Assembly: GCA_951406725.2 (NCBI GenBank)
Contig: OX597820.1
Location: forward strand, 12,028,001-12,092,000
Direction of reading: 5' to 3'
DNA: 64,000 nt
DNA from: Octopus vulgaris
Lineage: Eukaryota
The notes beneath the pieces are model-generated. The model ran no database searches and was not told where the DNA came from. It was given only the letters and a program-made list of their open reading frames with translations. The position numbers and the translations under genes are program-made. Shown here piece by piece: positions 9,584 to 60,186 of this stretch (positions within the stretch are counted from its first letter, which is position 1; every line of letters begins with the position of its first letter).

Positions 9584-9878
9584 TTTATAAGCCATTTAAG
9601 AAACACACAAAAACCGTTAGATTCACTTCAACATTTAAATTTAATTTGTCAAAATATTTTCGTCGCTTTGAGACCGCGACCTGTTCACTGACAAAACTTC
9701 AACAAGTCGCGGTCTCAAAGCGACGAAAATATTTTGACAAATTAAATTTAAATGTTGAAGTGAATCTAACGGTTTTTGTGTGTTTCTTAAATGGCTTGAT
9801 AAACACCTTCCACGCTGCAATTGTTTTCGTTCCAGCACACGATTTCAGATCAAGTCACTCGCTATGCAAGTACATCTC
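9584..9878. mobile_element. Penelope-like (PLE) terminal remnant in inverted configuration
   Basis: Inverted arms of about 100 bp (9587-9684 and 9701-9797); same family at 59887-60093; contains a hammerhead-like motif. Confidence 0.75.
9645..9695 (-). ncRNA. Minimal type I hammerhead ribozyme-like motif, G3:C8 variant
   Basis: UUUGUCA-GUGAACA-G-GUCGC(GGUCUCAAA)GCGAC-GAAA-AUAUUU-UGACAAA: 7-bp stem I, 5-bp stem II, palindromic stem III AAUAUU. Confidence 0.6.
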
Positions 9879-10113
9879 CAGAAATGTTTTTCTTTTTGTT
9901 AAGAAAAAAAAATCGAAACATGTCTCCCCTTTTCCGTGCATTTCGAAAATCCTCTGTGAGTTGGCCACATAAATATTTGAAATTTTATTTAACAAACCAA
10001 TAAAGGAGACGTAATGCTAGAAGTTTTGCCGTAAATCATTCCCTATTTTCTTAAAAAAGACAATGTTTATTGTTGCATGGACTTCTGCTGCAGCTATTAA
10101 TACTAGTACAGCC

Positions 10114-10795
10114 CACTACTACTACTACCACCACACCACCACCACCACCACCCGACCACCACCACCACCACCACCGCCGCCGCCGCCGCCGCCGCTACCG
10201 CTGTGACCGCCACGACGACGACGACGACGACGACGACCACCACCACCACCACCACTACTACTACTACTACTACTACTACTACTACTACTACTACTACTAC
10301 TACTGCTGCTAGCACCACCACCGCCTCTACGACTTCTATTGCCATAAATTACCACCAGAACTAATACGATCACCACCACCACCACCATCACCACCACCAC
10401 TATCACTACTACTACTACTACTACTACTACTACTACTATTAACACCATCACCACCACGACCTCTATAACTATTACTGCCTCTAATTACCACCATGATCAC
10501 CACCATCACGATCACCACCACCACCACCAACACCACGACCTCAACAACTACTATTGTCATCAATTACCACCATCACCACCGCCATCACCATCATCACCAC
10601 CACCACCTCTGCAACTACTATTGTCACTAATTACCACCACCACCACCGCCATCACCATCATCACCACCACCTCTGCAACTACTATTGTCACTAATTACCA
10701 CCACCACCACCACCACCACCACCACCACCACCACCACCACCACTACTACTACTACTACTACTACTACTACTACTACTACTACTACTACTACTACT
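10114..10795. repeat. Compound trinucleotide microsatellite (CAC/TAC/CGC/GAC/CAT)n
   Basis: Direct reading; produces the poly-H/Y/T/V ORFs. Confidence 0.95.
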
Positions 10796-12130
10796 CCCGT
10801 AGTGCTAAATGCGCACAATGCATAAAAAAACAAAACAGAACGGTCACGAACGAAACGTTTTTGATCATGGATCTCCTCAATCAGTGCCATGCTTGCGAGC
10901 TAAAAAAAAACCCAACAACCCCTAAAAACACCCTTAAATCCCACCATCACAGCGGGGACACCGACAGCTCCTGATATATGGCTTTTGTTGAGATATTATT
11001 CCGGTAATTAATAATTCATTTGTTACAGAATTCTCTCGTCTGCAGTCTTCTTTAATTCCGTTCTATATATACGTAACTGCGTTCTTCTGCTTGTTTACCT
11101 TTTGTTTAGCCAGTTATTGATTTTTGAATAAATTGATATTTATTTCTTCTGTAGCAATTTGTGACTAGCACAACACGAACACATGTAGGAACGCATACAC
11201 TTGCACAACAACACAAACATGCGTACACATCTGAACATCGTATTGATATGTGTCTGCACATGCGCAATCACATACATATTCATATATCAGACATGTATAT
11301 TTCCTAAGGGAAAATTAGCTGTGGTGTGTATATCTTTAAGTATGTGTTTGCGTGTGTGTCTATATATATATATGTATATATATATATGTGTGTATATATG
11401 TACTTACATACATGCATGCATGCATACATATGCACATACATACATACGTTCGTACTACATACACGCATAAAGACACACACGCGCACACACACATGCACAG
11501 ACGCACACATACATATGCACAAACACATGCACACTCATGTATAATATATGTTTACTATATATATATATATATATATAATAAACATATATATAAAATTTAG
11601 TTATATATATATATATAACTAAATTTGTGTGTATGTATATCCATATATGTTTGTCTATCTATCTATCTATCTATCTATCTATCTATCTATCTATCTATCT
11701 ATCTATCTATCTATCTATCTATCTATCTATCTATCTATCTACATACATACATACATACATACATACATACATATACACATACATATAATAAATTTATTGC
11801 ATAGAGATGCTTCATGTTTCGCCTAACGGGGCAAGCATTCATTTTCAATAAGTTGTGAGGTGAAAATTGAAATACCAGCCAACTCAACATGAATTTTACA
11901 GTAAATATCGACTCAAAATTTAGTATTGACTTACCACATTAAGAAATTGTACCTTCTCTGTCTCTTTCTTCCTTCCTTTCTTTCTTTCCTTCTTTCCTTC
12001 TTTCCTTCTTTCTTTCTTTCTATACATACATACATACATATGCCATAAACCTAACGATCATTGTGAAAGTGACCGTGCTTCACCAGTAAGCTGCCGGATG
12101 TAAGCCATTCGTTTTATTATACATATATAT

Positions 12131-12205
12131 GAAGGAACCTTGGATCTAGGTTAGAAACTATTCTTTCTCTATTGGCAAGAAATCTTGAAATAAAACTGAA
12201 TAATC
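12131..12205 (+). mobile_element. 3' UTR end of an R4/Dong-like non-LTR element
   Basis: Matches 30515-30579 (CCTTGGATCTAGGTTAGAAAC..TCTATTGGCAAGAAATCTTGAAATAAA); followed by (CATA)n. Confidence 0.7.
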
Positions 12206-57314: not shown

Positions 57315-58090
57315 CAAGGTGTTCTGGATAAATTTGACCGTTTGCGTAAAAAGTGGTTGTGAGGGGGAACGCAATATCTTAATAAAAGTATTTTTGAAAA
57401 TAATTAAACTATATCAACTAGGTTATGATTGGGGGAGTTTACTCAGAGTAGCCGCCCTCAGCTTCCACCACGGTCTCAAGACCGCTCCACCACGGCTTCT
57501 AAATCACGGCCTCAAGAAGCAGGCGTCCCTCATTGTGTCCCTTGGAAGATCTTCAAACATTCCCTTGATCTTGGACTCCCCTTCGGCCTTGGTATTGCAA
57601 GCAGAGCTGTAGGTGTCTTTCTCCACCGCGCTCCACACATAGTAATTGATGTGATTACAATCAGGGGAAGTAAGGGGCCAGAAATTGGGGCTGCTGAAGT
57701 CGTAGAAATACTCTGACAACCACTTCTGACTCTTTCCGGAGGTATGACAAATATCCAAATTCTGCTGCCAATCATATGACATTCCAGCAACAACCTTCTG
57801 CAGTCAGGGCTTGACTACAGTCTCCAGCAGCTTCTCGTAGCCGTCTGAATTAAAGCTTAAAGCCCTGTTCAAAGATGTGAGGCAGCATGGGGTGACCCTC
57901 AATGGAGACACATCCAAAAACCATCACAGACTGGCGGGAACTTGGTTCACACGGTGCCCATGCTACATCTTTACAATGTTGACAGAGCGTTGAACAGCAG
58001 TCATGATGTCGGCATTTTCATACCCGTTGCGGATCATTATGATACAGGTAACTTTTTTCCGATATTCAAATGGCTTCCAGCCCTCCATGT
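57315..58090 (-). mobile_element. Deleted Tc1/mariner element, maT/DD37D-like transposase remnant
   Basis: WQQNLDICHTSGKSQKWLSEYFYDFSSPNFWPLTSPDCNHINYYVWSAVE (37 residues between the two catalytic positions); N-terminus MEGWKPFEYRKK at 58088; one TA-flanked end at about 57315. Confidence 0.78.
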
Positions 58091-58520
58091 CAACTAACTT
58101 CTCAACTACAACCTAAATCTTTATGCTCTCCAACGCCGTTGACTGTTCACCTATATATCAAGCAGTTACTGAAGACAAGAGACATCATCAAATGTAGCGA
58201 GAATAGCCCGAATTCATAAAGTCTAATGTGTCTGAATTTTCATCACGCTTCCAAAGACAAAATCCATTTCTTCTTTCAATCTTTTGTCTTTTATCTTTAA
58301 TCTTTTAATTGTTTCAGTCATTGCACTGCAATCATGCTGGTACTCTAATTTCAAGAGCTTCAAGTGTAAAAATAAAAAGAAAAAACGAAGAAAATGTCTA
58401 TTTTACTTTGTAAAAATCCAAATCACATTTTTCGAGGAGATCGTAACAGTAATGCTGCTGTTTAAGCAAACCCATAAATGATAGACAAGTAGATTATTAT
58501 AATACATAGTAAAACAGCTA

Positions 58521-59041
58521 CCGTAAACCCTTGAGTAGAGTCCGCCCTTGAGTATAATACGCAGGGGATTTTTAGGGGACTGTACCTCTGAAAAACATAA
58601 ACCTTGTGTATAATACGCACCCCTTCTCTAACTTGAGTCAAGGAGGTCTATATAACGTCCTTAGTTTGTAAAAATGTATATGATAACATCCTTTATTATT
58701 AATGGATATATAACATAATGCAAACGTGTAGCTTTTTTGTGCATTTTGTTTGCAGAAAATAAGGAAATAACAGTAATAACAGTAATAACGTTTAATAAAT
58801 GTTGCTTATTGCAAGTTATGGATGATTCTTTTATGACTTCATTGCTTTCAGGCTTAGCTTCAGGTATTTTCGCGCCCGACATCACAAAATGCGTCTGAAT
58901 AACGATTGCCGGACAGCAAAAAGCGTCTCGGACATTGCTTAGAAAATAATTTTCATTTTTAACCTCGTATATAGTAAGCACTAGGGATTTTGACCTTTAA
59001 ATTTGGGGAAAAAAATGCGGATTATACACGAGGATTTACGG
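58521..59041. mobile_element. pogo/Tigger-like MITE
   Basis: TA-CCGTAAACCCTTGAGTAGAGTCCGC ... GCGGATTATACACGAGGATTTACGG-TA. Confidence 0.82.
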
Positions 59042-59697
59042 TATGTTGGTCTTTGAAACTCTAAAAAGAAATTCCAGCGGACATTTGAAATGAATCAAAA
59101 TCAGTATCATTTCTATAAAAACGGTTAGGGAAGTTCTCTCGATCGAACTTCGAAGAAGACGAGCTATTGGCGTGTGAAACACCTAAACATTTCACATTTC
59201 AGTGTGAAGCTGTTGTGCCAACAAGCTACGTTCGTTGAGATGAAATATGCTACTTTAAGCAATAAAATCAGTTAGAAAGATAAAAAAAGAAAGAAAAAAA
59301 TGTACTGTAAATAACATATCAGCTCAGTATATTCTGCTGCCAAGAAAATTGCAGCATACATGACCCATGTTAAAAACAAAACTGATTACAACACAAGTAA
59401 AACTGCTGCTATCATTACACGAACACACGAACAAAGAAATTGGAGTGAAAGGATATAAACTTGGAGAAGCCCTCATCATATCAGCCGAATGTTATACATT
59501 GGTACATATCCTGCAGCGTAGAGGAGAACAACGACATTGACAAAAAGAGGAGTCTCTCCTAGACTTGTGGTTGAGACATATTTCAACTGCACAAACCGGA
59601 GTAGTTTCCTAAATCCGTGATGAATTAAAGCGATAAAGATGTCTCTAAACCACCACGCAATGATAGAAAATGTCGACGGATCCACAACTTTATACAA

Positions 59698-60186
59698 CGG
59701 TGGTTCTCAACCGGGGTCCATATGACTTCTCTGGTCCATGTAAGATTAGGGAGAAGGGGTCCACGCAAGCTCAATAGTAAAATGAGTCCATGAAAAAATT
59801 TCTCTGATGTTTTACATAGTTCGCCCTACACAAGTGAATGTGTGATAAATAAAATAAGTATTTTGAAAGAAGTCTCTATAAAACTATAGAGAAGTACTTG
59901 CATAGCAAGTGACCTGATCTGAGATCGTGTGCTGGAACGAAAACAATTGCAGCGTGGAAGGTGTTTATAAGCCATTTAAAAAAACACAGAAAAACCGTTA
60001 GATTCACTTCAACATTTAAATTTAATTTGTCAAAATATTTTCGTCGCTTTGAGACCGCGACCTGTTCACTGACAAAACCCCGTGCTGTGTTCAATAAAAC
60101 TAGTTTTAAACATCGAATAGCTATGGGTGTCCACCAAAATGAAATAATAACCAAAGGCCGTTGATAAGAAATTTTGAGAACCGCTA
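59698..60186. mobile_element. hAT/Charlie-like MITE hosting a PLE fragment
   Basis: Termini CGGTGGTTCTCAA / TTGAGAACCGCTA; no clear 8-bp TSD. Confidence 0.55.
59887..60093 (-). mobile_element. PLE-like tail with G3:C8 hammerhead motif (60026-60076)
   Basis: Same family as 9584-9878 with an identical ribozyme core; flanked by the 9-bp direct repeat ATAAAACTA. Confidence 0.78.

Follow-up and report, generated by a model that had tools for sequence, protein, structure and literature searches.

How far can a self-cleaving RNA depart from its consensus core and still spread with the element that carries it? This question is raised by a 64,000-nucleotide stretch of the Octopus vulgaris genome (contig OX597820.1 of assembly GCA_951406725.2; G000:C7:12028001-12092000 in our numbering), analysed here at its full length and called the window. 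An initial annotation of this microsatellite-rich DNA (37% GC) had listed 15 minimal hammerhead ribozyme motifs, placed them in terminal repeats of Penelope-like elements (PLEs), and proposed that many cores differ from the canonical CUGANGA because positions 3 and 8, a tertiary base pair, change together under selection for catalysis. By searching both the window and the 2.8-Gb genome, we find that the altered cores prevail within their families, so the objection that these are merely decayed copies fails. We favor a reading in which the cores are fixed family traits that probably remain cleavage-competent in active parent elements. The argument from covariation to catalysis, as first made, was overstated: the switches are few, and the largest clade carries uncompensated changes at positions 6 and 4.

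Hammerhead motifs and their elements

We searched the window with a descriptor that fixed U4, G5, A9, GAAA and U16.1, left positions 3, 6, 7 and 8 free, and also demanded two paired stems (I and II) and a stem III palindrome. Eight of its ten matches survive a strict filter, and all eight have a Watson-Crick (WC) combination at 3:8 (two G:C, three U:A and three C:G). Thirty local dinucleotide shuffles of the window gave on average 0.10 strict WC and 0.03 non-WC matches (0.13 in total). In a blind sample of sixty 10-kb stretches taken at round coordinates (600 kb), we found 17 strict matches, compared with 0.125 in eight shuffles, and 16 of the 17 were WC at 3:8. Their states were C:G in 13 cases (seven from one tandem array), G:C in two, U:A in one and A:G in one, the last being an isolated altered member of the G:C family. 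An Rfam scan of the window gave 325 matches, and the 150 listed were all miRNA matches driven by microsatellites, with none to a hammerhead.

All 15 cores are present, at or within about 130 nt of where they had been placed, as eight intact copies and seven damaged members of real families. We distinguish about nine repeat families; they are not all unrelated, as the two U3:A8 families are akin to each other and so are the CUGUAGA and CCGACGA families. The anatomy first described for intact motifs was confirmed in the eight intact copies, which run from stem I through core positions 3-9, stem II, GAAA, a palindromic stem III and UH back to stem I. In each of them the G10.1-C11.1 pair is G-C, with an inserted base in families B, D and E and none in A and C, and stem III is self-complementary over 4-6 nt, too short to close alone. 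Family F escaped the descriptor because the stem III palindrome of its relatives is 10 nt long. In family P, both window arms have lost the closing pair of stem I, which is kept in three of three relatives. Families A, C, E, F, P and S have either CUGANGA or the published U3-A8 swap, and three families fall outside the published consensus: B (G3:C8), D (A6U) and G (U4C).

The assignment to PLEs, together with the minimal type I fold and its palindromic stem III, also held up. Open reading frames (ORFs) of the reverse transcriptase (RT)/GIY-YIG type could be tied to families A, B, C and D, and not to E, F, G, P and S. The motif lies in both pseudo-long terminal repeats (pLTRs) of the family B element L204 and 3' of the ORF in A, C and D. 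Further hallmarks of PLEs were direct pLTRs (321 bp), inverted partner arms and a variable upstream extent, as expected of 5' truncation; at loci L169 and L206 the sequence stops or is interrupted ahead of any hammerhead. Families A, C and D, which may be Neptune-like, and family B, which may be Nematis-like, all encode linker cysteines ahead of GIY-YIG. A Cys-rich linker in this position is a clade feature (PMC8557442). Collectively, the window copies are predicted minimal type I hammerhead folds in the pLTRs of several PLE families.

Variant cores as family traits

A pattern for family B (core GUGAACA) with positions 3 and 8 left free matched 1,148 times in the genome and never in its reversed control; the count is a floor because four family B copies fell in the blind 600 kb. 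We tallied 3:8 states by hand over 100 listed rows of each genome-wide pattern search. For family B, 95 rows were G:C, two G:U, and one each U:C, G:G and A:A, with no C:G. Following the upstream sequence of family B led to L204, a full-length element in which 321-bp direct repeats (99.7% identical) lie 4,261 bp apart. Both pLTRs carry the G3:C8 motif on the same strand and flank a 777-aa ORF, whose frame in this copy breaks near both ends. In L204, cleavage is predicted after base 177, and the upstream reading frame has its first ATG 57 nt further on. Searched whole, the ORF had no Pfam match; as an isolated domain, its GIY-YIG scored 23.3 bits against a cut-off of 22.6, and its middle matched RVT_1 weakly (E 0.07). 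Its neighbors in the Atlas are RT/GIY-YIG proteins, and a sequence search of the PDB returned no matches.

The window copies of family B are 88-92% identical to the L204 pLTR, and they differ from it in loop II and not in stem II or the core; G3:C8 is present in two loop-II subfamilies. A relative of the ORF on a metagenome contig (42% identical, 433 aa) is accompanied by CUGAAGA (C3:G8) with a similar stem I, and by this single outgroup G3:C8 would be derived. The same G3:C8 core stands in the contig consensus of four of four sequencing runs, under four organism labels that are possibly close kin. A search for more purine-3 families with a CG stem III, the one stem III type covered, found none (417 matches, with 1,197 for the reversed pattern), and the sole sequence repeated in it was a stem II, not a core.

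Three loci taken as candidates for the family B ORF proved to be unrelated duplications. L201 and L202 (G000:C1:192.58 Mb and 137.92 Mb) have in common a 3-kb inverted duplication, 97-99% identical, that includes family B copies. The microsatellite-rich 3' region at L204:3590-4350 is internal to the element, and truncated copies therefore seem to begin at host microsatellites.

The U3:A8 state belongs to families A (UUGAAAA) and C (UUGAUAA). A relaxed pattern for this clade matched 1,999 times, in several loop-II subfamilies, with no match in the reversed control; the 100 listed rows divide into 90 U:A, nine U·G and one G:A, again without C:G. The U·G rows cluster in certain loop-II subfamilies, so the wobble state has itself been amplified, and we infer that U·G is a natural step between C:G and U:A. 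Two same-strand U3·G8 motifs 4 kb apart (G000:C1:70848757 and 70852734) are probably the ends of a full-length PLE of the wobble subfamily.

Family A is judged young because none of its 41 listed matches differs over 141 bp. Its motif lies about 140 nt 3' of an RT/GIY-YIG ORF (RVT_1 at E 8e-5, below the cut-off; GIY-YIG fragment at E 0.0012). The family C ORF (GIY-YIG at E 7e-7) lies upstream of the motif in relatives. We compared these ORFs by pairwise identity in place of a protein tree. Across 215 shared columns the identity is 53.5% between A and C, against 40.0% and 37.7% between these two and the ORF of L144, whose decayed motif is C3:G8 when read by eye. U3:A8 may therefore have had one origin.

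CUGUAGA (family D) and CCGACGA (family G) are not 3:8 variants: both keep C3:G8 and change position 6 or position 4, a theme that the initial annotation passed over, and the two families have stem II and flanks in common. One pattern over D and G matched 34,872 times, with none in the reversed control, making this the largest clade. Of the 100 rows listed, which all come from the initial 4.9 Mb of a single contig, 96 are C3:G8. Among the 66 with a four-nt loop (family D), 60 have U6, four A6 and two C6; positions 3 and 8 are invariant in all 66, with N7 taking all four bases (U 24, A 19, C 11 and G 6 in the U6 rows). C4 stands in 22 of the 34 three-nt-loop rows and in 23 of the 100 overall, and by this tally U4C is a subfamily trait in family G; part of the U4 rows with a three-nt loop may be CpG decay of C4 rows. 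Either A6U or U4C is present in 83 rows and CUGANGA in just 12, which bears out the earlier warning that a search for the canonical core would miss such variants. The family D motif lies 300-700 nt 3' of PLE ORF remnants in two loci. Homology upstream of family G copies proved to be another repeat and not an ORF.

Covariation, cleavage and the alternatives

Positions 3 and 8 do change together across families, through C:G, U:A and G:C, but the pattern amounts to two or three lineage switches and not to 15 separate copies. Within families we found no compensatory change: C:G is absent from the 100 listed rows of family B and from the 100 of the U:A clade. When position-8 letters were dealt at random among family units, ignoring relatedness, P was 0.0015 for 12 units, 0.009 for 11 (A and C merged) and 0.033 for the six families of the blind sample. 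Because the units are related and two cores (L144 and L205) were read by eye, this evidence is suggestive only. As far as these sequences go, the covariation across families is real but based on few events.

Much of this variation has precedents. Like the minimal hammerheads described in metazoan PLEs (Cervera & De la Peña 2014, PMC4209133), the motifs here are type I; stem I is short, a base is inserted ahead of stem II in families B, D and E, stem III is a palindrome, and the motifs lie in pLTRs and occur as inverted opposite-strand pairs. The same paper published the U3-A8 variant, with about 1,300 matches in S. mansoni; its Fig. S3 includes UUGAUAA and UUGAAAA, identical to the cores found here, as well as one UUGAAGA, and sister Schistosoma elements form a C:G / U:A pair. 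Unlike our families of 10^3-10^4 copies, none of the 56 representatives in that figure has G3:C8, U6 or C4. Natural U3-A8 covariation and tolerance of a 2-bp stem II are also reported by Perreault et al. 2011 (PMC3088659), together with A6C in a phage (kobs under 0.1 per min) and U4C in a viroid that has low in vitro activity yet is infectious. There these are rare single cases, and the text consulted, Fig. 5 aside, names neither G3:C8 nor A6U.

In the Anolis Poseidon element PAc, the hammerhead lies near the ORF start and cleaves only with protein, and the double mutant C3G/G8C partly rescues it (Frangieh et al. 2024, PMC11167929). G3:C8 is a laboratory mutant in PAc, as it is an engineered rescue in PMC8495972 and PMC3884650, whereas in family B it is the natural state. 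The PLE variants of Lünse, Weinberg & Breaker 2017, as described in PMC6765202, resemble ours in their short palindromic stem III, dimer cleavage and link to PLEs. Our literature searches found no report of natural G3:C8, A6U or U4C in a PLE; the Lünse 2017 variant set and figures lay outside their scope and may contain them. U3:A8 in PLE hammerheads is therefore already known, and G3:C8 and A6U/U4C as whole families appear new, with that novelty uncertain.

If the variant cores do remain cleavage-competent in active parents, then the tandem arrangement pLTR-ORF-pLTR would supply what a single motif lacks. Closing stem III within one molecule costs energy, and two copies pair fully; two same-strand hammerheads would exchange the halves of their palindromic stem III and form a dimer, whose formation and cutting would probably be helped by the element's own protein. 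Cutting after N17 would trim the retrotransposon RNA to unit length. We infer this unit-length cleavage from the weak cleavage of metazoan PLE hammerhead dimers (PMC4209133) and from a review (PMC6765202). Selection on a few master copies would keep 3:8 paired and leave the letters free, with C:G passing to U:A once or twice, probably through U·G, and once to G:C. In the window, most copies are truncated and stand alone or in opposite-strand head-to-head pairs, and therefore offer no dimer within one transcript; they are likely relics.

Several observations weigh against this reading. There are just two or three independent switches, and the permutation is blind to relatedness and includes the two cores read by eye. 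A protein tree of nine rows does not resolve A with C: four of its six inner branches are open, and its L205 row is translated across a frameshift. Stem II of family A is only 2 bp, and a U3·G8 subfamily has been amplified (nine of 100 listed rows). The largest clade is, in its listed rows, mostly uncompensated A6U (60 of 66 with a four-nt loop) or U4C (22 of 34 with a three-nt loop); A6C and U4C both strongly reduce activity in vitro (PMC3088659). The abundance of such changes weakens the case for selection for full catalytic activity. In the Anolis element, hammerhead mutants had no effect on in vitro insertion, and RNA-seq revealed no ends where the ribozyme would cut (PMC11167929). Canonical hammerheads are missing from Naiad PLEs, which have spread all the same (PMC8557442).

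The alternative that best absorbs these points is that the hammerhead persists chiefly for its structure, as a signal for protein binding or the start of reverse transcription, with cleavage weak or dispensable. A6U and U4C would then spread freely, as the 83 of 100 listed rows of the 34,872-match clade suggest they have, and the unimpaired insertion of the Anolis mutants would be expected. We nevertheless regard this account as unlikely, as it offers no obvious reason for double swaps at 3:8 or for an invariant C3/G8 beside a free N7. Less probable again is that the cores were fixed neutrally in a few founder masters and then copied, their pairing being a small-number coincidence. Two or three events among non-independent copies, no compensation within families and a P of just 0.033 in the blind sample are all compatible with such founders; single changes, however, should then dominate, and besides U·G none is seen as a family trait. 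Moreover, the paired state persists in diverged subfamilies with different loops, and the U:A swap is found again in Schistosoma PLEs (PMC4209133). The seven damaged copies of 15 lend some support to the view that chance or the decay of CUGANGA copies produced the motifs, but near-zero shuffles, empty reversed-pattern controls and variant majorities within families refute it for practical purposes.

It is possible, though less likely than not, that this one animal genome amounts to an unpublished natural mutational scan of the hammerhead core, including G3:C8 in a family that has both an autonomous parent and a C3:G8 outgroup, a U·G intermediate on the way to U:A, and a dominant clade of about 35,000 copies changed at A6 or U4, positions held to be essential. 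If so, either the core rules are looser for hammerheads that act as dimers or with protein than for canonical ones, or selection favors PLE hammerheads as switches with their activity turned down. Hammerheads are near-universal in canonical PLEs, yet cleavage seemed dispensable in one in vitro system, and searches for CUGANGA undercount them. Swapped, wobble and uncompensated families, each amplified, form a test panel that sets core chemistry against transposition success; worth testing among these are family B (G3:C8), which has an autonomous parent, and the A6U/U4C clade that dominates by number.

Feature map and neighboring sequences

Table 1. Hammerhead motifs and associated PLE sequences, in window coordinates.
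Feature	Position	Strand	Details
Family B hammerhead, intact, GUGAACA (G3:C8)	9645..9695	-	stems I and II of 7 and 5 bp; palindromic stem III (AAUAUU), U17; cut predicted after 9652; 89-92% to L204 pLTR
Family B inverted partner arm	9706..9879	+	broken off inside core (positions 3-9 missing); reaches pLTR 3' end
Family S hammerhead, canonical CUGAAGA, damaged	14709..14754	+	G12A: GAAA to AAAA at CpG
Family C inverted pair	17603-17866 / 18252-18515		motif 17668..17712 sits in left arm
Family C hammerhead, intact, UUGAUAA (U3:A8)	17668..17712	-	stem III ACAUGU, A17
Family C hammerhead, intact, U3:A8	18406..18450	+	91-bp repeats before it
Family P hammerhead, canonical CUGAUGA, damaged	30794..30872	-	stem I closing pair lost; stem II long, stem III 8 nt and including G·U pairs
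Family P hammerhead, mirror arm of 30742-31155 palindrome	31025..31103	+	same stem I defect
Family A hammerhead, damaged, inverted arm	31517..31554	-	stem II deletion
Family A PLE ORF, C-terminal GIY-YIG fragment	32007..32309	+	99% to ORF in L015
Family A hammerhead, intact, UUGAAAA (U3:A8)	32444..32483	+	stems I and II of 7 and 2 bp; stem III ACCGGU, A17
Family D hammerhead, intact, CUGUAGA (A6U, C3:G8 kept)	32781..32814	-	stem III ACGU
Family D hammerhead, intact, A6U	38406..38443	+	
Family E hammerhead, intact, canonical CUGAUGA	40629..40672	-	
Family E second copy, decayed	41252..41296	+	absent from the initial list
Family C older relative, UUGAUAA, stem I broken	46756..46797	-	82.6% to family C pLTR
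Family F hammerhead, canonical CUGAUGA, old family	48571..48611	-	stem mismatches in this copy, including stem II
Family G hammerhead, CCGACGA (U4C, C3:G8 kept)	50066..50100	-	A15.1G; stem III palindrome broken (CpG decay)
Family B hammerhead, intact, G3:C8	60026..60076	-	solo 5'-truncated pLTR 59877-60087

The family P palindrome (30742-31155) spans 414 bp at 99% identity and has no spacer. Around the family C pair, 91-bp tandem units (17683-17866 and 18119-18435) hold only the 5' half of the hammerhead and likely stem from template switching; similar half-copies occur at other loci. Head-to-tail arrays of short units that each carry a full hammerhead, as in non-LTR (long terminal repeat) retrozymes, are absent from the window. 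One locus elsewhere, L121:2300-4600 (G000:C1:20000001+), is retrozyme-like in this respect, with seven copies of a 353-359-bp tandem unit in two orientations, each with a canonical type I hammerhead.

The window also holds a Mariner/Tc1-type transposase fragment at 2177-2977 on the minus strand (Pfam Transposase_1, E 1e-24) and, on the plus strand at 26600-27158, a 3' fragment of a non-LTR retrotransposon (zf-RVT, E 2e-8) that follows a long TATC microsatellite. A 184-bp repeat, SINE-like (short interspersed element) by appearance, forms short tandem runs, 84-95% alike and in both orientations, at 5636-5995, 38916-40133 and 41929-42511, with further runs at 54002-54373 and 60664-61031. An interstitial telomere-like TTAGGG array with regular variants lies at 42973-43371.

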